64,000 nt of DNA. It comes from Prorocentrum cordatum (lineage: Eukaryota). A program made the translations under genes and the position numbers. The notes below the pieces were generated by a model that saw nothing but the letters and a program-made list of their open reading frames with translations, was not told where the DNA came from and searched no databases. Below are positions 24,601 to 50,602 of this stretch, one piece after another (position 1 is the stretch's first letter; each line of letters opens with the position of its first letter). The DNA is taken from NCBI GenBank assembly GCA_963575745.1, contig CAUYUJ010000181.1, forward strand, positions 62,001 to 126,000, given 5' to 3'.

Positions 24601-24606
24601 GAGGAG

Positions 24607-26379: not shown

Positions 26380-26395
26380 GAGCCAAATCGGCTAC
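26380..26395 (-). other. Relict dinoflagellate spliced leader upstream of the DNMT
   Basis: Minus strand GTAGCCGATTTGGCTC vs DinoSL GTAGCCATTTTGGCTC (14/16), ~74 nt upstream of the ATG. Confidence 0.65.
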
Positions 26396-26679
26396 TGAAG
26401 ACTCAGACTTGAATGAGAGGTGTCACAGCGGTTCGGACGGTTCAGAGCAGAGGAACTCCAAGATCGCCCCCCAACATGATGGACCCACGAACCCGGAAAG
26501 GGATATAGAACCGCATGCATGGAAACGTTTTCACGACACCGTATTGGGCGACGGGCACTTCCACGAGACACCCCGCGAAACATTCCACGAGACACGGGCG
26601 ACCGTTTTCAACGTTTGCCTGGAAACATTCCACGAGACACCCCGCGAAACAGTCCACGAGACACCCCACGAAACATTCC

Positions 26680-26970
26680 ACGACGACAGGCAACCACTCA
26701 ACCAAGGCGGTGTGGTCGTGCTGGGGAGTGGTCGTGCTGGGGTGTGGTCGTGCTGGGGGGTGGTCGTGCGGGGGGGTGGTCGTGCTGGGGGGGTGGTCGT
26801 GCTGGGGGGTGGTCGTGCTGGGGCGTGGTCGTGCTGGGGCGTGGTCGTGCTGGGGCGTGGTCGTGCTGGGGTGTGGTCGTGCTGTGGTGAGGTCGTGCTG
26901 GGGCGTGGTCGCGCTGGGTGATGGCCTTGCTGGGGTGGGGTCGTGCTGGGGTGGGGCAATGCTGGGGTCA
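26680..26970. repeat. (GTGGTCGTGCTGGGG)n repeat family, also at 44035-44340 and 54776-55066
   Basis: Shared head acgacaggcaaccactcaaccaaggcggtgtggtcgtgctgggg plus array. Confidence 0.85.
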
Positions 26971-27413
26971 TGGGCTCCCAGTGTTCCGATGGGTGAATGC
27001 GGTCCTTATGGCTGGACCAGCCTGCAGCGAAGAACTGGGCCCCAGTTCTTCGAGCTGCGCCCAGCGGGGCCAGCCGCGGCGAAAAGGAAGGAAGGAGGGC
27101 CCAGGGGCCCAGTCCCCAGTCTTCCGAGTTGCGTCCCAGCCGGGCCAGCTGCAGCGACGAGAGAGGAGGAGGAGGAGGAGGAGGAGGAAGAGTCCTGAGT
27201 CCTGCGGCCTGCGGCGCTCTGCGGGCCCGCAATCCGCCGGTCCGGCGCGTGGGCCGCGTGGGCCGTGGGCCGATTCTATTGCACGGCTGTGCGATGGCAA
27301 ATTCGGCTAATGAAAATAGTAACGACATCAGACGATCAGTACATTGGGCACTGGGCCTTGTCATCCGCGTCGCTCTGAACCATTCCGCTGCAAAGAACCA
27401 CACACTTGAAAGC

Positions 27414-28142
27414 CTACCGCGGCAGCCAATGCGGACAACTCGTGATGAAGCCATACCGCGACCGACCGGCCCACATGTCGTACAACATCCACCTGTCCAG
27501 CTGCTGGTTCCTCTGATTGCGTGATGGGACGTCCAGTCCCCATAGGCAGAGCTCCTCGACAGTGCGGTATACCAATAGCGCCGCAGGCTCGATCCGCGAG
27601 AGGATCACTTCACTGTTGCTTGTGGCCAATCGCCATGCACGTGTGTCAGTGTAGCACCTGCCGCCAGCCTCCATCGCCATTATCTCCGTGTTCAGGTTGT
27701 GAATGCAGCATTGGTAGGAGTTGCTGACATCATACTGCACTGTGACGTGCGCGCGATCCAGCGAGGCAATACCAATATGATCCCAATTGTGACCACGGGA
27801 TCGAACTGTGCGGCCGTTCTGGACGATGCAAGTGGTCCAGAACATGGCTGGGCCCAGCTCGACGGACGCACTGAAGTACCGAGAGCGCACTCGCACGTTG
27901 CCGAAACTCACATGCTCGAAGGCTGTCAGATCGTGGGCCTGGTCGTCCTGCAGCCTATGGTAGGCGCTGCCACGTCGGAGCTGGTCGGCCTCCGCCCTCG
28001 GCATAGCTCGATAGAGTAGGCGTCGTCCAAAGAGATGCGGGCAGCCCCTCAACCACGTGGTGTGACCAGCAGCGCCACAATAGAAACAAGAACATAAGCC
28101 CTGCTGCAGATACATGGCGGTGGCCTCGTCCAACTGTTGCAT
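27414..28142 (-). CDS. Zinc-knuckle plus putative R-S-E class ADP-ribosyltransferase-fold protein, copy 1
   Basis: CFYCGAAGHTTWLRGC (CCHC-like), then LLYRAM, HVSFGNVRVRSRYFSAS and SNSEVIL, matching the R / S-x-S / E strand pattern of pierisin/scabin/enterotoxin-like ARTs. Confidence 0.55.
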   Translation of the reverse strand: MQQLDEATAMYLQQGLCSCFYCGAAGHTTWLRGCPHLFGRRLLYRAMPRAEADQLRRGSAYHRLQDDQAHDLTAFEHVSFGNVRVRSRYFSASVELGPAMFWTTCIVQNGRTVRSRGHNWDHIGIASLDRAHVTVQYDVSNSYQCCIHNLNTEIMAMEAGGRCYTDTRAWRLATSNSEVILSRIEPAALLVYRTVEELCLWGLDVPSRNQRNQQLDRWMLYDMWAGRSRYGFITSCPHWLPR

Positions 28143-28223
28143 TGGCTGCAACTTGGGCGACGCAACGTGGCGCGCGGGCGCCTCCGTAGGCTGGGAGCCC
28201 CCTGAAGGCTTGCAGCAAGGCGC

Positions 28224-28241
28224 TGAGTCAAACGACTGCGG
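28224..28241 (-). other. Degenerate relict spliced leader upstream of the ART-like ORF
   Basis: Minus CCGCAGTCGTTT-GACTCA vs CCGTAGCCATTTTGGCTCA. All substitutions are transitions; ~80 nt from the ATG. Confidence 0.4.
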
Positions 28242-28690
28242 GAGGCGGAGGAGGATGAGGAGGAAAAGGAGGAGGAGGAGGCAGTGAAGGAGAGGAGGAG
28301 GGATGCCATCCTGTGGCGTTGGGTCCTCGTTTTGAAGAGACAGCGCCCCGCGTTGCCTTCTCCTCCCGCTGCCCTCCCCCCGCCCCTTATCAAGGAGGGC
28401 TGAGGGAGGCCGGAGGTGTGTGTGCGCGCGCGTGTGCGTGTCTATGTGTGTGTGTGTGTTTGTGTGCGCGTGGGGGATCGCATGCGAACTTTGCAATTGG
28501 GGCCTTCGCTGGAGTTCCCTATGGGGCCACGAACCGTGTAAGGGGTGCGCCGACATTGGAACCGCGTGCGAACTTTGCCACTGGGGCCTTCGGTGGGAGG
28601 CCCGCGATGATGATGACGGCGATGATGATGACGATAATGATTTTGATGATTATGATTGTGATGAGTTTCTTCGTTTCTGGCGGAATGCTG

Positions 28691-28715
28691 CTTGAGCGCA
28701 GATCATGGCTACGGA
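28691..28715 (-). other. Relict spliced leader
   Basis: Minus TCCGTAGCCAT-gatctgc-GCTCAAG has 11-nt and 7-nt exact blocks of DinoSL (DCCGTAGCCATTTTGGCTCAAG). Copy at 56791-56815. Confidence 0.6.
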
Positions 28716-29090
28716 CTGAAGGAGGAGAGGAGGCAAGAAGGGCCGAGGGGAGCTCCCCATGGGTCCTCCACGAACCGCAGGGTGCGCCGAAATATGGGGG
28801 GGGGGGAGGGGCCTTCGGTGGAGCGGAGCTCTATATGGGAGGATGGCATCATCATCAGCATCATCATATGGGAGGAGGAGGAGGCATCATCATCAGCATC
28901 ATCATCATCACCATCATCATCATCAGCATCACCACCATCACCATCGTCATCATCACCATCACCATCATCATCATCACCATCACCAGCATCATCATCATCA
29001 TCATTGTCATCATCATCATCATCAACATCATCATCATCATCATCATTATCATCATCATCATCAGCATCATCATCATAATCATCACCATTG

Positions 29091-29127
<37 letters not shown>

Positions 29128-29328
29128 TATCATCCACCTCCTCCTCCGACTCCTCCTCCTCCTGCCTCCTCCCTCCTCCCTCCTCCCCCTGCCTCCTCCT
29201 CCCTCCCTCCTCCTTCCACTCCTCCCCTACTCCTCCTCCGCGTCGACCAGCCGTGGGAGGGGGAAGCTCGCCAAAAACATGTTCTACCGCGACAGGGTTG
29301 CATCGTCATCATCATCATCATCATCATC

Positions 29329-29362
<34 letters not shown>

Positions 29363-29409
29363 CCATTTTCATCATCCAGAGCGCCCCGCATCGGCGGCAC
29401 TGGCCGGAG

Positions 29410-30190
29410 GCCACTACAATGTCATAGACAAGGACGATCATACACAAGAGCTTAATATAGGGGAAGTATCATATACAAGGACCATCGCACACGAGGAAGA
29501 TCATATACAACGAAGGCCAAATTCCAACAAGATCATATACAACTCAGAGGCCGCCCACCCGCCGTCTCGCATATAGGCGACTGCACCGCCCCTACTCCTG
29601 GGGGTCCCTGGGCGGCCATGGCGTATCTCTGGGATTGTCCAGGGTCTCAATGACGGCCCAGGAAGCCCACCCAGGCCACCAAGATAGCCCAGAATCGCTC
29701 CAAGGCGGCCCAAGATGGCCTCCAGACGGCCCAAAAAGCTTCCAACACGCCCCAAGAGCCCTGCCACGAGACATCATATACAAGGAATGTAATAGGTAAG
29801 GGCGATCATATACAAGAACTTAATATATAGAGGAAGTATCATATACAAGGACCACCAGTATCATATACAAGCACCAAGTATCATATACAAGATTATCTAA
29901 GAACACCCCGGAACTATGTCTCATAGCAGCTCTTTCGACATCCCATTTGTCCGAGCATGTCTCAGGCGAGACGGCCGTTTTTGAAGTCCGAAAATTAGGC
30001 CAGCGATGTCAATATCCCGATTGTTTGAGGATGTCTCAGGCGAAACGCTCATTTCTAACATAAGACGTCTTAAGACACGACCCCCAACTTCACGATTTGG
30101 CGAGGACGTCTCGGGCGGGAATCCGCCAGGCTCTGAATCACGAGGCGGCGCCGCACGTTCCCCCTCCAGACCTCCTCCAGACTCCAGACT
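29410..30190. repeat. Interspersed repeat with atcatatacaag and gatgtctcaggcga motifs; related copy at ~44845-45375
   Basis: Colinear similarity, e.g. cccaggccaccaagatagcccagaatcg and gaatccgccaggctctgaatcacgaggcggcgccgc in both. Confidence 0.8.
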
Positions 30191-30944
30191 GCCAGACCTG
30201 CTACCCCTTACGATAGATGGGCGAAGGTAAAGAGACAAATCTCCACCCTTACATCTCAGACACGCATGGTGGCCCAAGGCCCAATGGGCTTCGCTTGGGC
30301 AGGCTGATGAGCATCACATCCTTTTTCCCAGAATGCAACGCAACGCATAGGGCACCTGCAACTCGCAGCACCATTCTTTCACATCCGTTCGATGGAGCTG
30401 GCTAGCACGCAGTCTGGACTCTAGGCAGGCGATCCCTTGGCAATCATCTCAGATGATTTGGATTGAAGTCCACAGTCAACATGTCACACCCTGCCCCCAA
30501 CACTGAAGTCCTGATCACGTGCAGGCCCACGCCTGCTACCCTGGGCTACCCCTATCGCGGAGGCAGCTGCCAGCGCTCGCGGCAGCATGATGAAAAGAAC
30601 GAGGAAGCGATCCAAGAGTAAACATGGAGGGAGAAGAGAGGAGGATGAGGGTTTCCGAGCGAAGCCTTTTAGGCCTCTGAGTCTCTCGATGATCAATGAG
30701 TTTCGGTTACGTCGTTCGAGTGGGTACCGAAACGGATGTGCACATGTCTTTCAGATTTCTGAGTTAGGGCCCCGCTTCGTTGCGATAGAAAACATTGATA
30801 TATTTCGGGGCGAATGCGAATTCAGGAGGAGGAAGTGGCGGAGGAGAAGTAAGAGGGAGGACGGAGGACCTCGAGCCTCGAGGTCCTCGATCCTCGAGGC
30901 TCGAGGATCGAGGAGGCAGGCGACGGAGGCAGTGGCAGGCTACC

Positions 30945-33900
30945 TCAACGCACACCCTTCACACGGCTGCGGCGGCCGCCACGGCCGCAACCCTTCGAGA
31001 GAGCAGCTTGGTCCTCAGCCTGCTCCGCAGCCCCGGCGCCGCCTCCTGTCTGCGCCGCAGTCTCCGCCGCCTTGATCTTCGCAGCGTCGGCAGTCAGCGC
31101 GCGCAGTACAGACTTGCTGGGCGCCGCCCGCTCGGCCCGCTCAGATGGCTTCTTGTCCTGGTTCATGATCTCCTCGGGAATTGCAGTCTTCTCATCAGGA
31201 ACAGGCTCTGCAGGGGCCTCCTCAGGAACAGGCTTCGCAGGAGCCTCCTCAGGAACAGGCTCTGCAGGAGCTCCCTCAGGAACAGGCTTTGCAGGAGCCT
31301 CCTCAGGAACGGGAGCCGCAGGCCCTGCAGGAGCCGGAGCAGGCAGCAGCTCGCCCGCCTCTGCGCCGTCAACCTTTTCGGCGTCCGCTCCTGTCTGGAT
31401 CGCATCCGCGTTCTTGTTCTCCTCAGTGGCTACCTTCTCCTCAAACTCAGCGTCAGGATCAGGAACTGCAGGAGCCTCAGGCGGCGGCTCGACCGCCTCC
31501 AGGTCCGCGCCCGCTGCCGTCTGGATCTCATCCTTTCCAGGCGCCTCCTCAAGTGCAGTGCGCGGCTGCACCCTGCCTGCCTCGGCTTCGTCTTGCATCT
31601 TCTCACCTTCTTTATCGGCGGCCTTGTGCGGCTGCTCCGCCTCGGCGCCTCCTTCCACGACGCCAGGGGCACCCTGGCCAGGCACCTCTTCACCCGTGGC
31701 AATGGCGGGCTCTGCCACAGTCGAGGCGTCGGCGTCGGGCTCCTCCTTCATTTTGTCAGTCAGCAGCGGTCGCCAGGCAGGCGCGCAGTGCTCCAGGACC
31801 GCCTCACAGAACTTCGCTGCTTCAAGCTGCTGCTCCTGAAGATACGCCAACTTGAGAGCATGTAGGTCCTCGAACGGCGACTCAAATAGACGCTGCATCT
31901 CTGGCAAGAAGGACATGCGGATGCCGAAGTTGTTAGCGTCGCATGGGATCTCCGCGTAGATGCATCCAGCTGGCAGGTAAAGCATCGTGTCTGGCCCAAC
32001 GAAGCCATGAACGAAAGGGACACTTGCTTTCGCCATCTGGTCGGCTGACTCTGCACTGATCTTTTGAAAGGCATCCTTGCATGCGGTGTATGTAGAGTTG
32101 GGCCCTAGGTACCCGGCAACCTTGGAGAACTGGGCAACGACGACGAAGCGCCGGCCTCCTACCTGTAGTTTCACGGTCGGAAGGTGGCGCGGCTCGCAGC
32201 CAAAATTCTTCGCACCTACAGGAAAGCCGAAGAGCTGAGCTTGCGTGAACTTCTCGACATCGACACCGCAAAGTAGCATTGCTTTTGGCACCTCCTTCTT
32301 GATAGCAGCGATGAACGACAACTGAGTGACATTCTTATTGATTGCCTCGGAAGATGGAAGCGTGTATGCAAGCCTACCGTTTGCAGTCTTCTTCGCAGCT
32401 TTCGTGAATCCTGCGCGAAAGGCGTTGAACAGGACCTTAGGCTGGTTCGTCTCGGCGCCGCCCTCGAACACCTTACTCTCTAAAGTCCCCTCGCTGAAGC
32501 ACAATACGAACGGTAAGTTCCAGTTGATGCATGCTGGCAAGTGCTTTTCGTCGGCATCGTATCGCGTCATGGGAGGGTGGCCCATGGACTCAAAGTCGAT
32601 CTTCATGATGGTCTTCTCTGCGGCCTCTTTCTCCTCGAGGCTCCTCTGGGCCACGACCTCAGCCTGCTTCGCCATGGCCTGGGGATCTGCTCTCGGCTTC
32701 GCGCCTTGCTTCGCAAGGGCTTTGGCAGCGACTTGCCTATTCTTCTCCTCTTCCTTCTCTCTCTTGGCTTTCAGACCTTCGGCGTGTTTGACCTCTGCTT
32801 CATGCTCAGACTTCAAGCGATCAGCGGACTTCCTCAAGGTCTTGCACAGCTCCTTCATCAAAGCAATCTGGTTATTGAACTCTACTTTCTGGGTCTCAAA
32901 CTCTTCCATGCTTGTTACTCCATCAGCAAAAGAAGCTGCCCTCGCCTCGAGCACCGACTTGGCTTGCAGGTTCGCCATGTCCTTGGAAACAAGAGACTGC
33001 ACCAATGCATCCATCGCCTGCCGTGTTTGTTCATTGTATGCTTCGCCTTCCAGACCGTTCTCTTTCTTGAAATCAACGTTGTCCTCGTAAGCCCAGAACT
33101 CCACGGCCTTCAAACGAAGTGAGCAAGCAGTGCGCAAGCGCTTCAGCACATCCCCTTCTGGTACGGTGTTCATGATTTGCCTACTGACATCAATGGCTTC
33201 CTCCAGGCGCTGCCCTTCCCTGCGGATATCCCTCTCGGCAGCGGTGTACGCCTTTTCGATCTTATCTTGCAGCGAAGCTGCATCAGCAGCTGAATCGTTG
33301 CCTGTGCCAGGGGAACCAGACGGCAATGATGCTCCAGCAGATTTCGTTGGCGTAGCCGTCGACGCCTGCGACGAAGGCACGTTGGCATTCTTTCCTGTCC
33401 GAGCTTTCTTGGGAGGGCCTGGCGCGCCGTCGTCGTCGGGCTCCACCTCTGCCATCTTGCTGAAGGGGTTCTGGACTGCTGCGAAAACCTTCCCGGGCGT
33501 CTTGGCGTAGAAGTCATCGTTCATCTTCATGTGGCCCGTCTTTAACTTCTTCTCGTCGTTCGTTATGTGCTGCGCGGTGGGGTTCCTCTTGTTGTTATAA
33601 CCGAGACGGGAGGTGTGCGTTTCGCCCTGCACGTTATTGAAGGAAAGTTTGTCAGCGACAGGGACATATATTCTCAGCTTGCCACCAGCGCACTCTGGCC
33701 GACTGCAGGACAGCGTGTCTCTGCATTCCCCAGGGCCTTCGAAGTCGCGGGTCGGGTACTTCACGGTATCAAGAACTGCTGCGAGCCAATCCTCCTCTGC
33801 CTTCTCCTTAGATTTGAGCCTCTCTGTCATCATGAATTTGACGAACCCAACGTGGTCCAACTTATCAACGACCTTCGTGTCGGTCGTGTTCGTCTCGGCC

Positions 33901-35483
33901 TTGGTGTCGATCCAGTAGGCAGCGAAGTCGAAGTCGCCTGCGGTCTTACCTCCAGCGGGGTCAGGCAAGCCGACGGTGAGCAGATACACGTCGATGGCCT
34001 CATCCATCTCCTCCGATTCCTTCTTCATGGCAGTGAACTGCTTGTCTCCCTGCCTCTTGGCCGAGCTGCTCATGTTCTCGTGCGCCCTACGATGTAAACC
34101 ACAGAATGGCGACTTGCCCTTCTTCGCATCCGCGCAGGTAAACTTGACGCACGCAGTCTTATCCTTGGCGGCCTCCACCCGTTCAGCCTTGCGCTGTTCT
34201 CGAAGCGCCTGGCGTTCAGCAGCACATGCAGAGGGAAGCTTGTCAGGCGGGATCTTATGCACGTTCCTCAAGCGCTGGAGCATCGCCTGCATATTCTCGA
34301 ACTCGGCGTTAGCCTCGCAGAGAGCACGTAGAGGCCTCCTAGATGGGGTCCGAGTACATGGGGTCGAAGGATCGCGCCGCATCGCCAATGCATCGCCGAT
34401 GCATCGGCGATGCATCGGCGACACAGGCGTGGAGAAAATCGGGCTCCACATCGAGCCGCATCGTCGATGCATCGGCGATGCGGCGCAATCCTCGGACCCC
34501 ATCTACTCGGACCCCATGTAGGAGGCCTAGAGCGCAACGAATGGAGGAAGGGGGAGGCCCCCGGGGAAGGAGGAGGATGAGGAGGAGGAGGCGGAGGAGG
34601 AGGAGGAGGAGGAGGAAGAGAAGGAAGTGGAGGAGGGAGGGGCAGGAGCAGGAGCAGAAGGGGAAGAGAGAGCACATCTTTTGTTACTTATGAATCCCAC
34701 CAGACCTCTGGGCGTGAATCTGAATGGATTATCTCCCCCCTCGGGAAGGGGGTTATTGCTTCCCCCAGGGGGGTCCAGGGCCCGGGGCCCGGGAGGGGAG
34801 GGACTCAACTCTTGTAACCCTCGCCGTCGTCGTCGTTGTCGGTCGTTGGTCGTTGGTCGTCGTGGTGCGTCGTCGTCGTCGTTGTCGGTCGTCCAGCAAC
34901 GACCAACGACCGACGACGACGACGACGACGACGAACGCAGCGCCAGAGCTCCAGGCAGTTTTCACTCGGCACCCCGGTCCAGCAACGACCAACGACCAAC
35001 GACGACGACGACGACGCGAAAACGGCGCTGGAGCCCCAGGCAACGGGCAACGGTCCAGCAACGACCAACGACTGACGACGACGACGACGACGCGAAAACG
35101 GCGCCGAAGCTCCAGGCAATTTTCACTCGGCACCCCAGTCCAGCTGCTGGACTGGACCAGGGTGCCGAATGAAAATTGCCTGGAGCTCCAGCGCCGTTTT
35201 CGTGTACAAGTTCGAGGGGACACTTTTGAGAATTTCTGCACTGCTGCAGTTTTTCTGAAAACGTGTTCCCTCCCTGTTTTCACCTCTATGGTTGGTGTGC
35301 ATCCTGCGCCTGCGCCGGCGCTGGCGTCGGCGGCTTTGTTGGAGTCGATGGCGGTGGCGTCGCTGGAGTTGGCGCGCCAGTCGAAGCCAGCGACTTCGGC
35401 TTCGGCTGCTCGTCAGCGGCGGCCCCCTCGACCATGGCCTCCGCCAGGAAGTCAGCAGCGAAAGCGTCGTCGTCGACCTCCAT
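30945..35483 (-). CDS. ~1180 aa protein with Cys/His cluster, coiled coil, degenerate JmjC/cupin-like region and acidic Pro/Ala/Glu tail; predicted exons 35483-35304 and 34313-30945
   Basis: Long complex ORF with CVKFTC...PFCGLH, a K/E-rich coil, and TVKLQVGGRRFVVV...VGPDTMLYLPAGCIY resembling JmjC strands but lacking the HxD/E..H ligands. The ORF-track N-terminus lies in a hairpin MITE; exon 1 (MEVDDDAFAADFLAE...) joins in phase 0. Confidence 0.7.
34332..34528. mobile_element. Hairpin MITE inside the predicted intron (copy at 62418-62614)
   Basis: TIR aggcctcctagatggggtccgagta / tactcggaccccatgtaggaggcct. Confidence 0.8.
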
Positions 35484-36084
35484 GATGGCCCGCCCTGGGC
35501 CTGGGTCCTGGTGACCCGTGACAGCCATCGGAAAGAATAAGATGAGAGATATGCGTCGCTCGCAGCTCGATCATTTGGGGGATGCGGAAGTCGGAGGGGC
35601 GCTGACAGGCCCTCAGGCCTCAGGGCCTCAGGGGGCCCACCAACGAGTCTGGGGATCACAGCGCATTATTATTCGAGAGCTCAACATCCAAAGTCCCAAG
35701 ACCCAAGAGACCGACAGATACCAGACTAGGCACGATACCGACTGCTTGAAACAACACGACACTGCTGACGATGAAACAATGATGCATGCGGGGGTAAGGA
35801 TCATGGGGAATTATGTTCCCAGAAGCCTCTCCGGGAACATATTTCAGACGTCCTCCTGGATGATGCCAATATGCTGATGATGATGGTGATGATGTGATGA
35901 TGCTGGTGATGATGTGTTGTGTTGATGCCAATATGTTGATGATGGTGGCAATGAAGAGGGCGGCGCGGCCGATCCTCATTGAGCTGCAGTAAGGACGCCG
36001 TCATCGAGGTAGTTGGCGTAGCTAAGATACCTGGCGGCTGCGCGCGCGATTGCGCCGCTGAGCTTAGACTGAGGCCTTCAGCCT

Positions 36085-36570
36085 TCAGTGGGACTCCCTT
36101 TTGGCCGCGAAGCCTGCGATGGGAGGGGTGGCGGGGTACCGAGCGATGCCGCTCTCGTCCACCCAGATGAGCACGACCTCTGCGGGGTCGGTTTCGTGGT
36201 AGTTCCAGAAGTGATGCCAGTTTGGCTGCAGCCAGATGTCTGGGACATTGCCTCGCGCTGGGAAGTGCCAGCAGTCTGGGGGTTGTAGGTGGGGAAGGGG
36301 AAGCTCCAGATATGCTGGAGCCCATGGCGGCCAAGGCCCTGGTGGGCTTGGTGGAAGATTAGGGGGTGGCTGGATCCGCTTCCCATTGCATATGGTCCCC
36401 ACGACCGCCCTTGGCCTGTCTGGCAGGTCGAGACCTGCCGGGCCACCGCCCGCGCTGGGCGGGGGGATGTCGCCATGGTGATATTTGGTGACTGAAGGCG
36501 CGAAGGCTTCCGCTGCGAAGGCGGCCTGCACCTGCTCGAAGGGCCAGGGACAGGGACAGGCTGCAGCCAT
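36085..36570 (-). CDS. Hypothetical Pro/Trp-rich protein
   Basis: Non-repetitive ORF MAAACPCPWPFEQ...WHHFWNYHETDP, co-oriented with the neighbouring genes. No recognised domain. Confidence 0.35.
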   Translation of the reverse strand: MAAACPCPWPFEQVQAAFAAEAFAPSVTKYHHGDIPPPSAGGGPAGLDLPDRPRAVVGTICNGKRIQPPPNLPPSPPGPWPPWAPAYLELPLPHLQPPDCWHFPARGNVPDIWLQPNWHHFWNYHETDPAEVVLIWVDESGIARYPATPPIAGFAAKRESH

Positions 36571-36829
36571 GACAGCGGGCAGCCCCCCGCGCTGCGGCGC
36601 TGCAGGAGCGCGCAGGCTGCTGAGAAGTACAATGGCGATGGTGGTAAGCTGATGGTCGTTAGTCGTTAGTAGCGGCAACAGCAGAAACGTAGCGATGGAG
36701 CGAAAAAACGCTTGATCGCCGCCGCCACTGGGCAAGCTACCCGACTTCACCACGCCCTAAAGGAAAGTACCACATCCCAGAAAGAAACGCTTGGGGCATC
36801 TGAGACGGTGCTATGTACATGCTAAGAAC

Positions 36830-37520
36830 GCTGATTTTTGGCAAATATCATGCGAAACGCGTCATTTAGCCGAAATACATGTAAAACGTTAGAAAAATAC
36901 TAAAAACAAACGCTAGGGCATCATTTAGCATACAAGACACAAGACTTATCATTTTTTGCATAGAATACAAAAAATATCAACAATAATAAAAAATACCCCA
37001 AAACATCAAAAAAAAATCATAGAATATCACTCGGGCTTGAAAAACACAAAAAACGTAAAAGAAACTCAAAAAAACACAAAGGTCATTGAATGTTCGCGAA
37101 CATGCACAAAATGATCGGTGAGGGCCGCCCCGAAGGTCCCCGAAGGTCTCCCCGAAGGTCCCCGAAGGTCCCCGAAGGTCTCCCCGAAGGTCCCCGAAGG
37201 TCCCCGAAGGTCCCCCCGAAGGTCCCCGAAGGTCCCCGAAGGTCTCCCCGAAGGTCCCCGAAGGTCCCCGAAGGTCCCAGAGGCACTTGTGAGAGCATGT
37301 CGACCACAAGTGAGCACGAGTGATATTTTATGATTTTTTGTAAAAATTATATGTTTTTTAATATTTTTCAATGCGTTTCTGAATTTCAGTGTTTTTTGTA
37401 TGCCGAGTGATATTTTACAAAATTAAAGGTGTTTTTTATGCTTTTGTTTGTTTGTGTTTTGATGTTTAGTGTTTTACGCTAAATTCTCAGAAAAGCAAGC
37501 GCAAATCTTTGTTTTTGCAC
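36830..37520. repeat. AT-rich inverted arms enclosing a (CCCCGAAGGT)n array
   Basis: aatatcactcgg..aaaaacac vs gtgtttttt..ccgagtgatatt, with the array at ~37128-37278. Confidence 0.7.
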
Positions 37521-39765: not shown

Positions 39766-40077
39766 AGAACTGCCCACGCATTGCTGCATAATGATATAAA
39801 TAAATGTGAATGTAATGATATTCGCCATGTAAAGAGTTGGCTTGGCGAATCAACCTTGAAACTTGAGACTGTCGAGTGCTCTGACGTCGGCACCGAATCG
39901 ACTCCGCACGAGAAGGGAAGGACGCAGTAGCGAGGGGAGTAAACGAGGAAAGGCTGAGGATGCACAAGAGAAGATCGCATGAAAGCTTGTCTGTCCAGCG
40001 TTTTCTTCAACGCAGCATCTGACCTCGCGAAAGCTCAAGCGCTTCCGAGTCTGAAGAACAGGGCGGCTTGTGCTACG

Positions 40078-43000
40078 TCAGTCTGACGACGTGCTCGAGC
40101 CCGAGCTAGAGCTCGACGACGCGGAGGCCGAGCTCGACGTAGAGGAAGAGGAAGGATCTCGCCTGAACTCCTCTGGTATCTGCCCTGCCATCTCGCCATC
40201 TAGATCCTCGTCTGGACCCAACTCCCTGCGGTCATCAGGGGCCGACATGCGCCCAAACTCGCCTGTGCGGTCAGGGTATTGGAAGGCCATCAGCAACCAT
40301 CTCTTCATAACAAGACGCCATCTGCTTAACGCTGCCTCCAGCGTTTCACCTGCCTTCGGCTTGATGGTTCGAGTCCTGGTGCATCTGGGCTCGACCGTGC
40401 CATTCGGGCGGATCTGCGGCCGATGGAATCGGCACGTGCACTGCAGGGACACGGGCTTGCCAGGGCGCTCAGCGACGATGAAAGCGCAACCGAACCACTT
40501 GGACGACTCTGGATGCTTCTCACCATTGGCCTTCCCGCGGCGGCCCCGGCGGCGGCTGCCAGCTCCGTCGTCGCCCGCTCCTGGCGACCCTGGCGGCGCG
40601 TCTGGCGGCGGCGGCAGCGGGGGCCGCGGCGGCGAGCCTGGCTCCTCAGGCGGCGGCGCCTCCTCCGCCGGCGGCGCCTCCTCTGGCAGCGGCAGCGGGG
40701 GCTCCTCTAGGGCGACGAAATCTATGCATATCCACTGCTGCTGGCCAGGCTCATCCGGGGCCCAGGAGTAGTGTATACGACCTCCTGGTTTGACCAAAGA
40801 GGCGTATACAATATTCCTGGCCCCAGGATGGGCCTGGCTTGCAGCAGTGGATATGTATAAATCTCGTCGCCCTATCCTCCAGCGGCGGTGGAACTGGCAG
40901 CGGTTCCGCATCGCCTGGCTGCCTGCCTCGCCCTCGACCACGTGCGCGGCCTCGCGCGCCCCGCCATGCGCCACCACCTCTCCTGCCTCTGCCTCGGCCC
41001 TGGCCCCGGCCTCGACGAGGCTGGAGCGGCATGCCATCCTGGTCGCCCTCGAAGTGGACGAGCACGCCCTCTCCGTCAACTTCGACAAGTTGCGTGTCGA
41101 ACTTGCTCGGATCCTTGCCATTGCAGACATGCTTGTAGTAGCCCTCTGGTTGCAAATGCAGAAGACGGTCGATCCCAATGGTCTGCATGAGGGCAGACGC
41201 CTGGCACAACGCCAAGAGATACCACCGATTAGCAGAAGACTTCCAAGAGGTCCACCACACTTTCGAGCTAGCCTCACCTTCATCGTCGAAGCTCAAAGAA
41301 ACCACTGCAGCCTTATCTTTCTTCGTTGCACCCTTTGGCAGCATCGAGTGAACCCAACCATGCTGGTGCAAGTATAGTATCAACTCCCACCTTGTAGCAT
41401 CGCGAAGAGCGTCCGCCTCGGGGACTTGGGCCAAGGTGTTCTTCGGCGTGTCCAGGCGCAAGGTCAAGCGAAAGGAGTGCACCGCCTTGGCCGTTAATTG
41501 CCATGATGAGTGGCTCGACGTGAATAAGCAACACTGGACCAATCCGCTCCGCGCCATTGTTTCCAACGTCTTGCGGTCTCCGTCTCTGCTGCGGTGGTCC
41601 ACGCACATCGAGGCATACTCAGTTTGCTGCGATATGAAGTCCGAGGAAGTACCAGGAAAAGCCCCACACGATGAGAGCTCAACAAGGAGACGGGATAAGT
41701 CTGCTGGGTCGACACCTTCCACACCATGACCTGCGTAATGGTACTCGACTCCTGCCTTAGTGTCGATGCTCCAAGACTCGACGGAGCTCATCATGTCATC
41801 GATGGTGCTGAGTCTGGGCGGTCTCCACACGTAACAACCAGAGGTGTTGACTGCATCCACCAGAGAGGCATGGTTCGTTCTCTGTGATGGTTGCAAAAAC
41901 ACTGAAACTACTGGGGTGCCTAACCGACCTTGATCACCATGGTTTTGCTGCACCTCGTGCACGCTGACAACTACGTCGTCCCTAGCAAATGCTCCGACTC
42001 GCTGCGAGGATATCGTCACCTGGGAATCCCAGGGGAAGATGGTGAACTATCTCAGTAAGCTTCTGGGGGAGCTCCCTATTGGGCCTCAAAGCGCGCGAAG
42101 TGGGAGACACGTACTGTTGGAGCCCATTGGGGCCTTCGCTGGACTCTACACCTACTGACCGCCTTGAAGCCGTCTTGGTGTCTTGGTATTGCCTTGGATC
42201 TTATCATATATGCTTGCCCTTCCTGGTGCTGTCTTACAGGCCCAACAAAATTTATTATCTCCTCTTCCCCTTCGCCCTCATCCTTATGTCCTCCTCATCC
42301 TTCTTCTCCTGCTCCTCCTCCTCCTCCTCCCCCTCCTCCTCCTCCTCCTCCTCCTCCTCCTCCTCCTCCACCGCCTCCTCATCCTCCTCCTCCTGCTCAC
42401 AGCCACCCTCGAGTTCGATACGAGGCTCAATACGAGGCGACCTGGTCTGCAGGCCGTCTGTGCACGACCCGGAAGAAGCACCGCTCGTCCACGAGGTCAG
42501 GCAGTTTGAGACCGCCTGGATCGTCAGACTCATCTGCGAGGAATACCCCCCCTGCTTTGTGCAAGTTGTTGATCGCATGCGCGGACTCATCGATAACAGC
42601 GTCCATTGGGACGATGGACATCGGCCCTCCAACCTTGAAAGAGTACATAGTAGTTGGCGTGCACCGGCGGTAAAAATGATCGACGACAGCATCGTGGAAC
42701 ACCGACGTTGAATGACCAGCTGGCTCTTCATGCTCTTGATGCGCATCATCGCGTTTCCTTTTCTTGCCGCTGGGGTGTTTGGCCGAGGTGTCCGTGACAT
42801 TGAAGGACTTCAAATTCCTGAATTGCGTGCGATGGTCACGCCTGTACACGACGGCTTCCACCAAAGGGTGATGATTGTGACCAACAAACACATCGTTGAA
42901 GGGCTTATTGCCAGACAGCACAAGCGCTTCTTGAACAGCTGGGTGAGTAGCCAAATCAAGAGCCTGCAGGCAGTTGCACATGCCGCGAACCTCGTCGATA

Positions 43001-46000
43001 TGGTTGGTAAGCTCAGCGAACATCTCTGGGCTGTGTTCGACGTGGTGTTCGAGTTCCCCACACCGCAACTGCAAACTGATGCCTGCCGAGGAATTCCGAC
43101 TGGCGCGTTTGCCCTTCGTGTTGATGTCGCGGTGCCTGGATTCAATGTATGTCTCCACGATCGGAATGCAACGCAGCCTGGCCCTGACAAGGTACAAAGA
43201 CGGAAGGTCTGACCAACTTGTCCCAAGTAGAAACTCAAGGAATTCTGCATGCGCCGTTCCCCCAGGGCAGCATAGAGAGCCAACAAGCCTAGACACTGTC
43301 GGGACACACTGCTCTCCTGAATCTGCGTGTGCACCAGATCTGAAAGTGTCGTAGGCTTCTTGGCAGCACCTGCGAGCCAGCTCTTCATCGATGTGGGCGA
43401 GGGCTAGAAATCGATGAGCGCCCGAAGTAAATACTGCAGTTTTGAAAGATATAACATATGCCATGTGACTGGCAGCACTGTTGAGGTCCGTGACGATCAT
43501 ATCACGCATGTTCTTGGGCAGACCTGCGATGAGAAAACACACGCTTGTCCGAGAGATCGAGGTGTGCTCGTCAATCAGCTCCTGGATTCTGCCAGCAGCC
43601 AGCGCCCCAACGCGTCTACCGCGCATCGGGCACGTCGGATAGCTTGACGTTGGTGAAGCTCTGTGGTAGGCCCGGGATCGCTGCGCCCACGTCGCAAGCT
43701 TTCTTGTACCAAGGTCGCAAGAAGAATGGCAATCACACCCCCAAGCCCATTCCTCAATCTTCAGAAGGACTTTGTTTACCTGGATCAGCATCTTGCCGTA
43801 CTGCCAGTGCGCTTCCGAAGTCACAAAATCGGTCGGTATGCCCTCATCCTCACCATCGTCAGGCTGGCGTAGCCCAGGCACATCAATTTTCCGTCCATCC
43901 CAGTGCGCTCGCAAGGGGCCTTCGACCTTTTCGGGGACCGTAGAGCACGTCCTCCTCCTGCCCCCCTCTTCCTCCTCCTCCTTCTCCACCTGCTCCTGCT
44001 CCGACTGCTGTTGCTGCTCAACGACAAGCACTCAACGACAGGCAACCACTCAACCAAGGCGGTGTGGTCGTGCTGGGGAGTGGTCGTGCTGGGGGGTGGT
44101 CGTGTGGGGGGGTGGTCGTGCTGGGGGGGGTAGTCGTGCTGGGTGTGGTCGTGCTGTGGTGAGGTCGTGCTGGGGTCGTGCTGGGTGATGGCCTTGCTGG
44201 GGTGGGGTCGTGCTGGGATGGGGCAATGCTGGGGTGTGGTCGTGCTGGGGCTGTGTCGTGCTGGGGTAGGGTCGTGCTGGGGTGGGGTCGTGTTGGGGTG
44301 TGGTCGTGCTGGGGTATGGTCGCGTTGGGGTGTGGTCGTGGAAACGCACGGGTTCGTGCACCTGGAGAAGGCAAAATCTCTGGGGCGCCCAGATTCCTCA
44401 AGTTCTACAGAACAAGCGATTCGCTCGAGACATCCTCGGTAACTCTGCGGAGCAAGCGTTTCGCTCGAGACATCCTCAACACACGAAAGAGTGGCCCGCA
44501 CCCTGTTATTTATCGATCGGGCGTTCAAAAACAAGCGTTTCGCACGAGACTTCCTCGGATTCTTACCTTTCCTGACATGAACGGGGAGCGCGTGAAAGGA
44601 CAGAGCTGCGCAAGAACGCGCAGCATCATCACGATAAAATGTAATGTAGGCGAGCTCTCCGAACGTCCACACGGGATACCCACGGACACGCGCTCCCCGA
44701 ACGTCCACAAGGAGAGTCCTGAGTATCCTCCTCACTTCTCTGTACGCCTCCAATGTCGTCCGTCTAGCCCTCACTTATCTGATGTGTTCGAAGGCCCGTC
44801 CGAAGGTACACGCACGCACCCACACAAGCACACGCACGCGCACACACCCAGGCCACCAAGATAGCCCAGAATCGTTCCAAGGCGGCCCAAGATGGCCTCC
44901 AGACGGCCCAAAAGGCCTCCAACACGCCCCAAGAGGCCTCCAAGAGCCCTGCCAAGAGACATCAGATACAAGGAATGTCATAGACAAGGACGATCATATA
45001 CAGGAACTCAATATAGAGGAAATACCATATACAAGGACCACCAGTATCATATACAAGGACCAAGTATCATATACAAGGTTATTCGAGAACACCCCGAAAA
45101 TATGTTTCATAGCAGCTCTTTCGACATCCCAGTTTTCCGAGCATGTCTCAGGCGAAACGGCCGTTTTTGAAGTTCCGAAAATTAGGCCAGCGATTTCAAT
45201 ATCCCGATTTTGTGAGGATGTTTCAGGCGAAGCGCTCATGTTTAACATAAGACGTCTTAAGACATAACCCCCAACTTCACGATTTGGCGAGGATGTCTCA
45301 GGCGAAACGCTGGTTTTGGGAATCCGCCAGGCTCTGAATCACGAGGCGGCGCCGCGCGTTCCCCTTCCAGACCTCCCCCAGTTGATAAGTAAATCCCTCT
45401 GGGCAAACAGCCGTCCATCGCGCGACTCTTCGAGTCTTGGCGCGCTTCCCGTCATCCGCCGGCCCACCTCGACCTCGATATTCATCAAGGAAAGAATCCG
45501 CCGCCGGCCCACCTTAGTTGAGGCACCGGGGACAGGTTGACCAACTAAAAGAGAACTCTGGGCTGGCGCCCTTTCTGGGAAAAAGGGAGAGGAACCAGTG
45601 GGGTAGACCTCGAGAATTTCTTCCATTGCTTGTATCACGTACCCCCGTCGCACGTCGACGATATCTGGAGCTAGTACTCGAATCTTCTCGGCAGACCACG
45701 AGGCAGGCGGTGAGGAAAAACATTGAGCGATTACACGGTCCCTGTAGGTCTTTCTCTTCATGAAACCGCAGAACACTTTGAATGCTCTCATGAACCATTT
45801 GAAATTCATCATTGCGTGCAGCACGTCTTTCGCCGCATTGTGGATGATATGCATGAGCCCAGGCACCTTTGGGGCTGAGAAGCGCGGGAGATTCAGCCTG
45901 GTTCCTAGGAGGATTCCTCTCCCTCTTGGGCTCAGGCCCTGCAGCCCTAGGCCCTTGAGCCTTGAGCCCGTGGCTGAAGGCTGAGAGGAGGCGAACAGGG

Positions 46001-48640
46001 ATTCGCGCCTGTTCGTCTGGACTCCAGGGCCTGGCTTGGAGAGGAGAGGAGTCCTCCTATGAATCTGGCAATCCCACTGGCACGCTTTGTTCTGACTTCT
46101 TCTGTTCAGACCCCTTCTTCCCCCGCGAGACGTTGGAGCGTTTTTTTTTTCTACCGAAGGAGTTGGGAGGAGGAGGACGCGAGAGAGCAGGAGAAGGAGG
46201 AGGAGGAGGAGGAGGAAGAAGAGGAGGAGGAGGAGGAGGAGGAGGAGGAGGAGGACGAGCGAGAGAGGAGGGGAGGATGGACTCCAGGACGGCCTGTCTA
46301 GCCCTCCTCCTTCCTTTTCCTTCAAAGGAGGATCATGAGGGTCTGAGCTGGCGCTGACGTGGAACGTGGGAAGCCAGAGACACCAGAGGGGAAACGCGAT
46401 CCCCAGGACCCTGGACCCCTGGTGAGGTCGGAGACATATTGTTCTCCTCCCTCCTCCTCCTCCTCCTCCTCCTCCCCTCCTCCCTCCCTCCTCCCTCATC
46501 TTCCTCGCCTCCTCTCCTCCTCCCTCCTTCCTCCTCCTCCTCCTCCTCCTCCTCCTCCTCCTCCTCCTCCTCCTCCTCCTCCTCCTCCTCCTCCCCCCCG
46601 CCCTTTTCCTCGTCGTCCTCCTCAGGTCCTCCCTCCTCATACTCCTCCTTCATCCTCCCCCTCTTCCTCCTCGCACTCCTCGTACCCTCCATGTCGCAGA
46701 GCCCAGTGCCTGCGCGGCGTTCGCGAAGTACATCTCGCCATGAGCAGGACTGTCAGCCTCCAGAGCCTCCAGTTGTGCGACGCCACCGCCCATCAAATCT
46801 GAGTCTGCCAATTCCATGTCCAGCTCATCAGCGAAGACGTCCACATCTTGGTCCTGCGCTGGCTGGAGGTCCCGAGGTGACTCCGAATGTTCGCAAGTAA
46901 ACATGCTCTGGAAACCTGGCACCAACTCTTCCTCCTTGATGCTAGCACTCGTATTGGCCAAGCCGAGCTCCGCTCCCATATCCGTGGTGAATGAAACGAT
47001 ACTCCTCGCGAGCTCCCGAACAAGTGGCCATGAACCGTTTTCAAGCCGGCACTGGTGTAGGAAGCCATGCAGCTTATGCTGAAAATATGACGCACCAGCT
47101 CCCACGGCAATACAGGGCATGGTGTGCAAACTGATCGAGGATGCTATGGTGGTCTCAGCTTTGGCAATCGCTTCAACCTCGGCCTGAGTGGCATCGCAAT
47201 CGTCAGTGCCCTGCCGCCGCCGTTGCTGAGCACGTAGTTCGACCAACGTGTCAATCGCCTGCGACAGCGGCACCAAGTCGTCTTCCAAGACTACTGCGCA
47301 AGAACTGATCAACCAGTCGGCACCACACTGCTCACTCGAATCGACCATGAAATATCTCGCTGGAAGCTTGCCATGGGACTTCGCATCTTGATTCGTTCGG
47401 CGATGCCACAGCATATAACCAGCGTCGACGGACAGTTGGAAGCGTGACAGGGTTCCAGCTGAAGGCAGCGGTACATCATGATTTGTTACCATGTCGACTA
47501 TGACGTCAGCAAACTCAGTCGGCAAGGCAATCTTGATGGACGCTTGAATTGCTCGGCTAAGTAAAGAGAAACTCTTGAGGCTTCCTGAGAGAAGAAGGCA
47601 ACGCAACATGTAAGCCGTCTCAAACACTTGATGGCCCCACCGCTTGGCCGCAGCGACCCCTCTTGGCGTTAAACTCGCTGCACACCTATCAAGCCACATT
47701 ACCATTTCTTCCAAAGCTGGTCGATCAGACGGGGATGCCGACAAAATGCGAGGGGCCCATTGTCTCAACATCTTGGATGCCCCATCGGCACGAACTTGCG
47801 CGTCCAAGATGCTGGAACGTTCGGAGGAGCCAACGACGTGGATGTCAACGTGGTCCCTCATCGCCTTCGCGTCCTCGAATATGGCATCGATCTTGGCGTT
47901 TCCGCCTCTGGCTTTCGGCTGCAACAGGCCGATGTGGCTGACCGCACCACCGCAGATCAAATCAATTAGCACAGGGTGTGGGAAGTAGGCTGTAAAGCAG
48001 AACCCGTCACCACCAAAGTTCACGCCATGCCCTTGCAACCAACAACGGACCGTGTTGGACCTCGGAGTGGCGGTACCTCCGACCTCTGAGAACAACTGGC
48101 CTGCTGGATTCGGCACGTTCATTGAGCCAGTTAGGTCCAGCAAGCGTGTTGAGGATAACCAAGAAATAGAAGTTAATGTCCTCAAGAGCCTGCTATCTGA
48201 ATAATCGGACTCGACCCAGCCAACCGGGGATTCGAAGCACATAGCTTCAGAAATGCTGAAAACACCTCACGATCGGTAACACTATTTGCTGACAACATGT
48301 GGTGCGCCAGTTGATGCCAACGCGTGCACAAGCATAAAGGACCAGAGTACACTTCGCAAGGCAAAGCAAGCATGATGATACCATAAGCGATCATGTCGCC
48401 AGTTGTATCGTTCATCGAATGAAGACGATGAGGACCAACAAGGCCATCGCCTGGCTTGGTCTCTTTGAAATCAATTGCTGACATGCCCCAGTCATCGCGA
48501 AACTTCGCGATGTCCTTTTGAAATATCTTGGGGATCAATTTTGCTGCATCAACTGTGTTCACAACACCACCGCCATCAGCGACGCCAGCAGCACGGAGCG
48601 CGCGCGCGCGCCTGCTCCTCTGCCTCTGGTTCGCCGCCAT
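40078..48640 (-). CDS. Large DDE (RNase H-fold, hAT-like) transposase; exons 48242(48640 via frameshift)-46710, 45866-45609, 43926-42442, 42019-40877, 40704-40078; possibly defective
   Basis: Five blocks, each a multiple of 3, join across GC-AG, GT-AG, GT-AG and GA-AG introns into 1681 aa counted from 48242. Ordered motifs: RYFMVDSS (D, 47340-42), VSFTTDMG (D, 46980-82), VPGLMHIIHN (xxH of the insertion domain), DVRRG (expected RW) and IVETYIESRH (E, 43141-43). C-terminal CRFH..C cluster. Confidence 0.7.
40705..40876 (-). mobile_element. Introner-type GA-AG intron: 167-bp hairpin element with a 5-bp TSD
   Basis: Element 40708-40874 with ~70-bp imperfect TIRs (tagggcgacgaaatctatgcatatccactgctgc / gcagcagtggatatgtataaatctcgtcgcccta). 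TSD tcctc at 40703-07 and 40875-79. Removing 172 nt fuses two ORFs (PPLE-EPPLP). Confidence 0.85.
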
Positions 48641-49874
48641 GGGCGAACATATCAAAAGAGGAAACTGCATTAAGCGAAATGCCCACATGATCGTACCTGA
48701 TCTGATGAGCTGGCGGCGGAGTGTTTGTTGTTCTCCTGGGGCTCCCAACTTCGCGCTTCGCGCTCTGCGAAGTGCGAAGCGCGAATAACTTCGCGCTCTC
48801 GCGCCGCCCCCCCAAAGGGAGAAAAGGAGAACGAGGAGGACGGGGAGAAGGAATGAGGACCGCGAAGCGCGAAGCGCAAATGACTTCGCGCCCTCGTGGG
48901 AGCCCTTGTTCTCTCTGTTGTCGTGATCATGCTTCTCCTCCATCTCCTCCTCCTCCTCCCCCCCCCTTTTCTTGCCTGCTCACATTCTCCTCTTCCTTCT
49001 CCTTTTCTCGCCCGTCCGTTCGGAGGCAACTGTTTTATGGGCGAAGCTCAGATATGCGTTCTCATCACTGACAACACAAGCTTCAAATGTGACGCCAGAG
49101 GGAGCGATGCCTAAGTCTGCACATGAATCCACCGGGGCCCCTGAAAGTCCCCCAAGGCTTGCGAATTCCCCACTTCATCTATGCCTTTTTGCTCGCGTTC
49201 GTGCCCGCCAAACCCAAATTCTCCTAATGCGCAGTCAGGCTACTGAAAGACATGCGAAGGAGGCGAGGACAAAGAGGCGGAGGCTAGGATGCTCAGGCGA
49301 CGAGGGGGGAGATGAAGGAAGAGGACGAAGATAAAGATGAAGATGACCCCGGGGAGAAGGAGGAGGAGTAGACCAGTCCTCGAGGAGGAGGAAGAACACG
49401 AGGACGAAGACAGGGGGAGGAGGAGGAGAAGGAGAAAACATAGCATGCAGATGACCCCGAGCTTGCTTGCTTGCACGCGGCTGCTGGACAAGATTACGCA
49501 GTACTCCAATGCTCGCGAGAGACATCTAACGCGTATGCACACCAGCACTCGTGCACGAGGTGACTGACAACACGCTGCACGCGAGCTGAGCAACCCGTCA
49601 CAGGGTAAAACTGCTAGAAAGATTCACATGTCCGCCGTCCGCACCGTGCTGGTGCTGCTGCTATGCCAGGTGCGCACGGCTGCGCATCCCGAAGCTCGAT
49701 GACTCCGAGGCAGCGCGCGCACATCGGTCCAGAGATACTAACCCACCGGGAGGAGGAGGAGGAGGAGGAGGCTGCGGGCGAGATAGAAAGCAAAGTGACT
49801 TGAAAGTACGACCACTAGGACCAGGGAGGTCCAGATGGTCCAGAGCACAGGGCTGCAACTCGACTGCTAGAAAC

Positions 49875-50543
49875 TCACGGCGACGGGGGCGGCGGCGGCG
49901 GCGGCACCGGTACGTCACTGAAGTACTTGGCGATGTCTGGCGGAGGTAGCTCCAGTCGACGTTTCCGCGCGGCGCCCCCCATCCACGCAGGGCAAGGCGA
50001 GCCATCTAGGCCATCCTTCCACTCCCCAGCCGCGCCGCGGAATGGGCTCGAGCTGTGGTGTAGCTTCGCTATGTTCTTCACCTTGCTGACAATGCTGTGC
50101 TCGCGATGGTCACGACGACGTTCTGGGCTCTCACTGTCGACAACGATGGTGTCATGCGGCGGCGCCGCCGCCCCCGCTGGCCAGGTCCGCTCCACAGGCT
50201 GCTCAGGCGGATGACGCCGCGGGGGCGTCGTCGGCACCCTGCTGCCCTTCGGCGAACCGCCGCGGCTGCGGCGGCGGCTGTCATTGCGCTTGCGCCCACT
50301 GCGGCTGCGGCGGCTGTCCTTGCGCCCACTGCGGCTGCGGCAGCGGCTGTCCTTGCGCTTGCTGCCCTTGCCCGTGCGCTGCTGCTCGTCGTACTGAGAC
50401 TGCAGTTGCTTCGTGCGCAAACGAGCCTTCAGCAACTTCACCTCCGCCTCCGCCCGCTTCTCCTCGAGCTCAGCTTCGCGCAACTGGTCCGACATCCTCA
50501 GCTTCGGCATGGCTTTCGCCCGAGGGGCGATTAGATTCACCAT
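49875..50543 (-). CDS. 222 aa basic coiled-coil / RS-rich protein, probable retrogene
   Basis: Intronless ORF (LREAELEEKRAEAEVKLLKARL; DSRRSRSGRK repeats) with an SL relic ~38 nt upstream. Confidence 0.65.
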   Translation of the reverse strand: MVNLIAPRAKAMPKLRMSDQLREAELEEKRAEAEVKLLKARLRTKQLQSQYDEQQRTGKGSKRKDSRCRSRSGRKDSRRSRSGRKRNDSRRRSRGGSPKGSRVPTTPPRRHPPEQPVERTWPAGAAAPPHDTIVVDSESPERRRDHREHSIVSKVKNIAKLHHSSSPFRGAAGEWKDGLDGSPCPAWMGGAARKRRLELPPPDIAKYFSDVPVPPPPPPPSP

Positions 50544-50580
50544 TTATTACAGTAGCAACTGCCGACGGCGGACAACGCAG

Positions 50581-50602
50581 CTTTGAGCCAAAACGGCTAT
50601 GG
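50581..50602 (-). other. Relict spliced leader
   Basis: Minus CCATAGCCGTTTTGGCTCAAAG vs CCGTAGCCATTTTGGCTCAAG. Confidence 0.85.

Follow-up and report, generated by a model that had tools for sequence, protein, structure and literature searches.

DinoSL-tagged retrogenes, that is, recycled processed cDNAs that still carry the dinoflagellate spliced leader (DinoSL), were reportedly described by Slamovits and Keeling in 2008. As the leader joins an mRNA only after transcription, a copy of it in the genome marks a trans-spliced mRNA that was reverse transcribed and re-inserted. The published work treats genomic DinoSL relicts as a hallmark of mRNA recycling (Song et al. 2017, PMC5585692; 2018 review, PMC6050394), as an initial annotation of the DNA analyzed here had rightly assumed. 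The relict of the 22-nt leader lies on the coding strand, less than 500 nt from the open reading frame (ORF); its AGCC and TTT(T/G) parts are preferentially retained, and the best-conserved relicts are found at -50 to -100 (PMC5585692). Parents were found for only 6 to 10% of the retrogenes (PMC6050394). A second described system is that of SymbioLINE-Dnmt together with SymbioDIRS-Dnmt3, in which the intronless DNMTs that have expanded in Symbiodinium lie inside retrotransposons and do not represent retrocopies (de Mendoza et al. 2018, PMC5890265). Here, a 64,000-nt stretch of Prorocentrum cordatum DNA (contig CAUYUJ010000181.1, positions 62,001 to 126,000), referred to as the window and numbered from its first letter, was analyzed for DinoSL relics in front of its ORFs, among them an RS-rich, a DNMT-like, and an ART-like ORF. 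The relics probably mark ordinary DinoSL-tagged retrogenes, a known class, and not a special cDNA-capturing unit.

The leader sequence given in PMC5585692, DCCGTAGCCATTTTGGCTCAAG, was used as the query. Because the block at 24707 to 35875 recurs at 52803 to 64000, all relic statistics were run on the nonduplicated part only, positions 1 to 52802. The control for the local-alignment scan consisted of 200 dinucleotide-preserving shuffles (400 strand-scans) and that for the edit-distance scan of 200 shuffles, and the edit distance was taken over the whole 21-nt DinoSL core. A pattern search allowing up to three mismatches returned a single match, at 50582 to 50602 on the minus strand, and 0 of 100 shuffles contained any. 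Local alignment gave minus-strand scores of 30 (50583 to 50602), 25 (28691 to 28714), 23 (14364 to 14382), and 22 (26380 to 26395), followed by 21 (2700 to 2714) and 20 (8419 to 8428); the best plus-strand score was 19. Scores of 22 or more were thus obtained four times on the minus strand and never on the plus strand, against 0.23 expected per strand, and 0 of 400 shuffled strand-scans reached four. Similarly, five minus-strand matches were found at an edit distance of 5 or less (0.81 expected; reached by 0 of 200 shuffles), compared with one on the plus strand (0.90 expected), and the minus-strand counts at distances of up to 3 and up to 4 were also reached by 0 of 200 shuffles. When 6 edits were allowed, the minus strand held 14 matches against 8.85 expected, a count reached by 15 of 200 shuffles, and the plus strand held 3 against 9.08. 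As the shuffles predict the same count on both strands, the strand bias is not compositional. The relics at 50581, 28691, and 14363 are singly secure at an edit distance of 4 or less (0.06 expected); those at 26380 and 2700, both at 5, are weaker.

The distance from each relic to the next minus-strand ATG-initiated ORF of at least 150 aa was 40, 135, 73, 180, and 311 nt for the relics at 50581, 28691, 26380, 14363, and 2700, respectively. From random positions the median distance to such an ORF is 947 nt, and the probability that all five lie within 311 nt is 2.5e-4. The motifs are DinoSL-derived beyond chance, strand specific, and clustered 40 to 311 nt ahead of ATG-initiated ORFs. Matches equally frequent on both strands and at random distances from ATGs, which the initial annotation had named as telling against its own proposal, were therefore not what was found. 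Chance similarity in GC-rich, repeat-rich DNA accords with an expectation of about one edit-5 match per strand, so that one of the five relics may be spurious, possibly the candidate at 2700 to 2717, and with the failure of two of the five sites originally listed to rise above background. For the set as a whole it is refuted and highly improbable, given that no shuffle matched the observed counts at any of the stringent thresholds, that the plus strand shows no excess, and that the matches cluster upstream of ORF starts.

The initial annotation had placed its five relics on the coding strand. At each reported site the plus strand carries the reverse complement of DinoSL, so the motifs are on the minus strand, as are the ORFs. 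Set against the shuffled background, three of the five sites exceed chance, namely 50581 to 50602 (edit distance 3), 28691 to 28715 (4), and 26380 to 26395 (5), and two do not. One of these, 36620 to 36641 (minus strand), has an edit distance of 8, at which there are about 250 matches per strand, and was rejected as noise. The other, 28224 to 28241 (minus strand), was also rejected, as its edit distance of 6 is the level at which 8.85 matches per strand are expected. It stands about 85 nt ahead of a methionine codon near 28139 that is a plausible start; by our own arithmetic, there is a chance of about 0.08 that, of some nine background matches, one lands no more than 150 nt ahead of any of three ATGs. 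With both sites at chance level, the notion that the ART-like ORF follows two relics of different decay falls. A reading of the raw sequence made with no tools had thus found real relics, and its weak additions were noise; the result mostly confirms a known phenomenon.

Several features place the relics with the published retrogenes, from which nothing essential sets them apart in the features compared. On the coding strand and less than 500 bp upstream, relics precede the RS-rich, DNMT-like, and listed ART-like ORFs by 37, 73, and 135 nt, so that the best sites lie at about -40 to -135. The internal AG is kept in three of the five relics and TTT(T/G) in four, matching the published preference, and, just as the published retrogenes are often orphans, an orphan occurs here. 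The decay of the relic at 28691 is unusual: the match to the leader is perfect over its first 11 nt and again over its last 6 nt, and 8 nt stand in place of the TTTGG core. In an alignment of their 220-nt contexts, the five relics share nothing except the leader, and with flanks that are mutually unrelated they stem from separate events. We infer retroposition as the origin of each relic. A trans-spliced mRNA would have been reverse transcribed and then re-inserted as a leader-carrying retrogene, and the relic's own AG may be reused as the trans-splice acceptor. A pyrimidine-rich tract precedes two of the sites, the 40 nt upstream being 85% pyrimidine at the RS relic and 80% at the ART relic (background 95th percentile, 75%); as CT-rich microsatellites are common here, these tracts are suggestive. 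After the relics had formed, a block of at least 11 kb holding two of them would have been duplicated, the copies now being 99% identical.

Intact spliced-leader RNA genes were rejected as the source of the motifs, since the leader is followed by CT, CA, or TG and by no GT donor, and the sites are single and dispersed, where tandem arrays are typical of such genes; an Rfam search of the window returned no RNA family. A related explanation takes the relics to be stray fragments of spliced-leader RNA or its genes, either pseudogenes or leader-only insertions kept as TTT(T/G) promoter-like elements, and not the 5' ends of cDNAs. The relics at 14363 and 28691 have no convincing ORF close behind them, neither poly(A) nor a target-site duplication links a relic to its ORF, and the TTT(T/G) retained in four of five relics is a promoter core proposed in PMC5585692, all as this explanation would have it. 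We nevertheless consider it unlikely, as none of the relics leads into a GT donor or anything resembling an intron, the Rfam search was negative, and the RS and DNMT relics stand 37 and 73 nt ahead of the first ATG of long ORFs, with significant clustering overall.

A number of observations weigh against the interpretation as tagged retrogenes. No A-rich tract was found 3' of the RS-rich, DNMT-like, or ART-like ORF and no short target-site duplication at the tagged ORFs, and a LINE-type processed retrocopy, as recognized by a poly(A) remnant and short target-site duplications, was accordingly rejected for these three. Long ORFs are common on both strands of this DNA (about 58% GC), with 34 ORFs of at least 150 aa on the minus strand and 35 on the plus strand. 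The RS-rich ORF has no homolog at an E value of 0.01 or less (length range searched, 122 to 389 aa). Between the relic at 28691 and the coding-like part of the ART-like ORF lie about 550 nt filled with microsatellites. The relic at 14363 has no convincing gene behind it, being followed after 180 nt by a poor-quality 154-aa ORF and then by low-complexity DNA. The phosphodiesterase gene behind the candidate at 2700 has at least two introns (gene model P0157 skips them), although intron-containing DinoSL-tagged genes are known (PMC6050394). Finally, EukProt assigns two protein fragments that share 97 to 99% identity with the DNMT-like ORF to a green alga, Pyramimonas sp. CCMP1952. Mislabelling or mixing in the public data is a likelier cause than the presence of DinoSL in a green alga; no paper containing the code CCMP1952 was found, and a literature search, as far as titles and abstracts go, gave nothing relevant linking Pyramimonas with a spliced leader. 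The relics in this way act as an internal taxonomic marker, one that disagrees with the naming of nearly identical public proteins as those of a green alga.

The coordinates of the relics, ORFs, and repeats are collected in Table 1.

Table 1. DinoSL relics, ORFs, and repeats in the window (edit, edit distance to the leader core; score, local-alignment score)
Feature	Position	Strand	Details
Strongest DinoSL relic (RS-rich ORF)	50581-50602	-	CCATAGCCGTTTTGGCTCAAAG; score 30, edit 3
RS-rich ORF	49875-50543	-	222 aa; first ATG 37 nt past relic; GC3 0.79
Direct repeat A+B, upstream copy	50653-51116	-	464 nt, contiguous
Direct repeat, downstream copy	49097-49845	-	A 49749-49845, 287-nt insert, B 49097-49461
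DinoSL relic (DNMT-like ORF)	26380-26395	-	GTAGCCGATTTGGCTC; score 22, edit 5; 14/16 core, 15/21 overall
DNMT-like ORF, copy 1	24513-26306	-	3' part cut by N run 24607-24706
DNMT-like ORF, copy 2	52723-54402	-	559 aa, uninterrupted
Duplicate of relic 26380-26395	54476-54491	-	Identical, in second copy of block
DinoSL relic (ART-like ORF)	28691-28715	-	TCCGTAGCCAT-GATCTGCG-CTCAAG; score 25, edit 4
ART-like ORF	27414-28556	-	380 aa as listed, 135 nt from relic; frame crosses GT microsatellite
Duplicate of relic 28691-28714	56791-56814	-	Identical, in second copy of block
Additional relic, outside range of initial annotation	14363-14383	-	TCCGTCCGCCATTTGGCTCAG; score 23, edit 4
Weaker additional candidate	2700-2717	-	CTCGCCTTTTGGCTCCAG; score 21, edit 5
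Largest ORF	30945-34502	-	1,185 aa; normal protein composition
ORF run	45339-48943	-	Three adjacent ORFs (253, 530, and 433 aa) in different frames; no relic

The DNMT-like ORF was analyzed in its second copy because the N run interrupts the first, in which the relic precedes the ATG at 26306 by 73 nt. On its own, the ORF scored below the cutoff of 22 bits against PF00145 (12.4 bits; E value, 0.1), and a PDB search gave no direct match. It has 613 relatives at an E value of 0.001 or less, counted as cluster representatives, and is colinear with eight of them, seven of 511 to 544 aa and one a fragment of 348 aa. A family profile built from 36 members, 8 of which match PF00145, matched PDB entry 7r76 with an E value of 3.4e-22, M.HhaI at about 1e-11, and also DNMT2. 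Entry 7r76, deposited as "DNA repair protein Rad8," is a DNMT5. The order of motifs in the family is YSGxG ... TCxDxS ... EC ... RxR ... GNGMH, and the cysteine of motif IV is present. Through the family profile, and not through the ORF by itself, this is a full-length, uninterrupted C5-methyltransferase-like gene whose activity is predicted. The labels "DNMT" and "intronless" in the initial annotation accordingly hold for the ORF at 52723 to 54402, on the strength of the profile and the uninterrupted colinear alignment. An alignment of the relatives yielded 117 pattern matches in metagenome contigs, of which 0 were confirmed as relatives, and 0 relatives in viral contigs.

Two described groups of methyltransferases invite comparison with this gene. 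With the DNMT5 domain of 7r76 and the dinoflagellate-specific DNMT5c (Hoguin et al. 2023, PMC9998398) it shares the profile match to the 7r76 catalytic domain and the motif order; unlike DNMT5, the protein is a stand-alone domain of about 520 to 560 aa that lacks the SNF2 helicase part, the likeness being one of profile and motif order. With SymbioLINE-Dnmt as well as SymbioDIRS-Dnmt3 (PMC5890265), it shares an intronless C5-methyltransferase-like ORF in dinoflagellate-type DNA, but no ORF for a reverse transcriptase, endonuclease, RNase H, or tyrosine recombinase adjoins it among the 293 ORFs scanned (see below). As it carries a leader relic in place of a retrotransposon partner, it looks like a transcribed gene that was retrocopied. 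A leader-tagged, full-length, stand-alone DNMT5-like gene that lacks a retrotransposon partner would be a counterexample to the published statement that intronless dinoflagellate DNMTs do not represent retrocopies (PMC5890265).

The label "RS-rich" was borne out by translation. Its relic retains the internal AG and TTTTGG. A Pfam scan of the ORF gave no family, and it is best described as an orphan that is putatively coding, given that ORFs of at least 150 aa are just as numerous on the plus strand. The ORF and its relic lie within an 807-nt segment, 49846 to 50652, bracketed by the 464-nt direct repeat, the two copies of which share 96% identity over the 97 nt of part A and 98.4% over the 365 nt of part B. 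The 287-nt insert that splits the downstream copy occurs once in the window. This arrangement may have arisen by an insertion that duplicated a long target, or else by duplication in place; the roughly 50 nt of non-mRNA sequence that separate the leader from the repeat speak against a simple cDNA insertion. In animals, LINE-mediated processed pseudogenes are likewise intronless re-inserted copies of mRNA, and the RS segment resembles them in lying between direct repeats; it departs from them in lacking a poly(A) tail, in having a repeat of 464 nt and not of 7 to 20 nt, and in the stretch of about 50 nt of non-mRNA sequence ahead of the leader. Given a comparison with an empty site, the RS segment within its repeat could reveal how such cDNAs integrate. 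Part B, in its downstream copy, also sits some 150 nt ahead of the ORF run that comes next and extends downward from 48943.

Although the ART-like ORF is listed at 380 aa, its coding-like part begins at a methionine codon near 28139. A Pfam scan returned no family, and a fold model was unusable (pLDDT, 30). Its nearest clusters in the Atlas were ADP-ribosyltransferases of the pertussis-S1/scabin/NarE type at a score of 0.79, which is below the reliable level, so that "ART-like" is a lead rather than a finding. The motif GGTTCGTGG was observed at 26485 to 26493, 28527 to 28535, and 28768 to 28776, that is, three times in the unique part, each time on the minus strand, whereas 0.55 occurrences would be expected in the entire window. 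It sits within an element of about 50 nt, TCGGCGCACCC...CGGTTCGTGG...CCCATGGGGAGCTCC, which precedes the DNMT relic and the ART relic by 50 to 140 nt and occurs once more downstream of the ART relic.

The block containing these two ORFs spans at least 11.2 kb, and its copies share 99% identity at an offset of about 28.09 kb. On the left it is bounded by the N run at 24607 to 24706, the sole N run in the window, and its right edge leaves the window; the duplication may be truly segmental or may be an effect of assembly. As the relics at 54476 to 54491 and 56791 to 56814 are identical duplicates, they are not independent evidence. Within the block, a significant relic stands ahead of the DNMT-like and ART-like ORFs only. 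Its largest ORF, of 1,185 aa, has nothing better than an edit distance of 6 to 7 within the 530 nt upstream. It is split into ORFs of 857 and 406 aa in the second copy, and no Pfam family, PDB match, or viral-contig relative was found for it; in the Atlas it gave weak JmjC leads (0.79). Outside the block, the ORF run at 45339 to 48943, the middle member of which is protein-like, may be one gene with introns or frameshifts. Pfam and PDB searches with the ORFs at 39 to 49 kb gave no match.

Using Pfam, 293 stop-to-stop ORFs of at least 90 aa (150 of 155 on the minus strand and 143 of 162 on the plus strand) were scanned, with the longest ATG-initiated ORFs scanned separately, and none of them returned a domain of a reverse transcriptase, integrase, or transposase. 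Three of the five minus-strand ORFs left out of the stop-to-stop scan overlap the N run; the first copy of the DNMT-like ORF, minus its N part, and the two ORFs away from the N run were scanned separately. The 19 plus-strand ORFs outside the scan either overlap the N run or are the shortest of their set.

The initial annotation had gone further than single retrogenes and proposed that a unit of some 28 kb is a composite of serially inserted trans-spliced cDNAs, captured as "cargo." The DNMT-like and ART-like ORFs are indeed adjacent, each behind a significant relic, but they are the only two so tagged in the block, and the 1,185-aa ORF and the run from 48943 to 45339 carry no relic. The coding-like ORFs all share one orientation, as serial capture would predict; yet the window is dinoflagellate-type nuclear DNA with a head-to-tail run of minus-strand genes, and such an order is normal in dinoflagellates (PMC5890265). 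The 464-nt direct repeat brackets the RS segment in the way that an insertion would, and retrogenes tend to insert near their parents (PMC6050394); however, the ORFs are separated by microsatellite spacers of 0.1 to 2.2 kb, their 3' ends lack poly(A), and none of the 293 scanned ORFs supplies a reverse transcriptase, integrase, or transposase. Only 24707 to 35875 is duplicated, with edges in an assembly gap or off the window, so that a unit is not established. The published base rate, relicts in 22 to 23% of Symbiodinium gene models (PMC5585692), accounts for the number of relics and makes a few tagged genes in 53 kb unremarkable, with no special unit needed. Serial capture was therefore not upheld and is unlikely. 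Still less likely is a stronger version, in which the region would be a nest of repeated capture of neighboring cDNAs, with 49846 to 50652 a freshly caught insertion flanked by a 464-nt target duplication and the DNMT5-like gene spreading as a retrogene and not inside a retrotransposon. If true, such a nest would represent a type of locus or mobile unit, one that captures cDNAs, not described in dinoflagellates.

Outside the region covered by the initial annotation, the candidate at 2700 to 2717 lies 311 nt upstream of the ATG of the phosphodiesterase gene (2389). Relatives of this gene, at 33 to 52% identity, are encoded on short transcript-like contigs, some of which open with the 3' end of DinoSL. 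Of 80 loci, 13 had their contig starts inspected: L047 begins with TTTTGGCTCAAG, and shorter 3' portions of the leader open L004, L009, and L010. One named relative is from Pfiesteria. Taken together, the window's leader relics and the relatives of its phosphodiesterase make a dinoflagellate source the likelier one, as judged from sequence comparison. An internal relict was also seen at positions 88 to 100 of L012, an environmental transcript-like contig encoding a relative of the phosphodiesterase, in its 5' region. These five contigs are instances of the phenomenon from outside the window. One intron of the phosphodiesterase gene contains, at 1500 to 1660 (minus strand), a run of TTTTGAGGCC(A)TTTTGAGGCC units, within which two exact GCCATTTTG 9-mers occur at 1515 to 1523 and 1597 to 1605. 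By the 9-mer criterion of PMC5585692 these would count as relicts, yet they look like a local T-rich tandem repeat.

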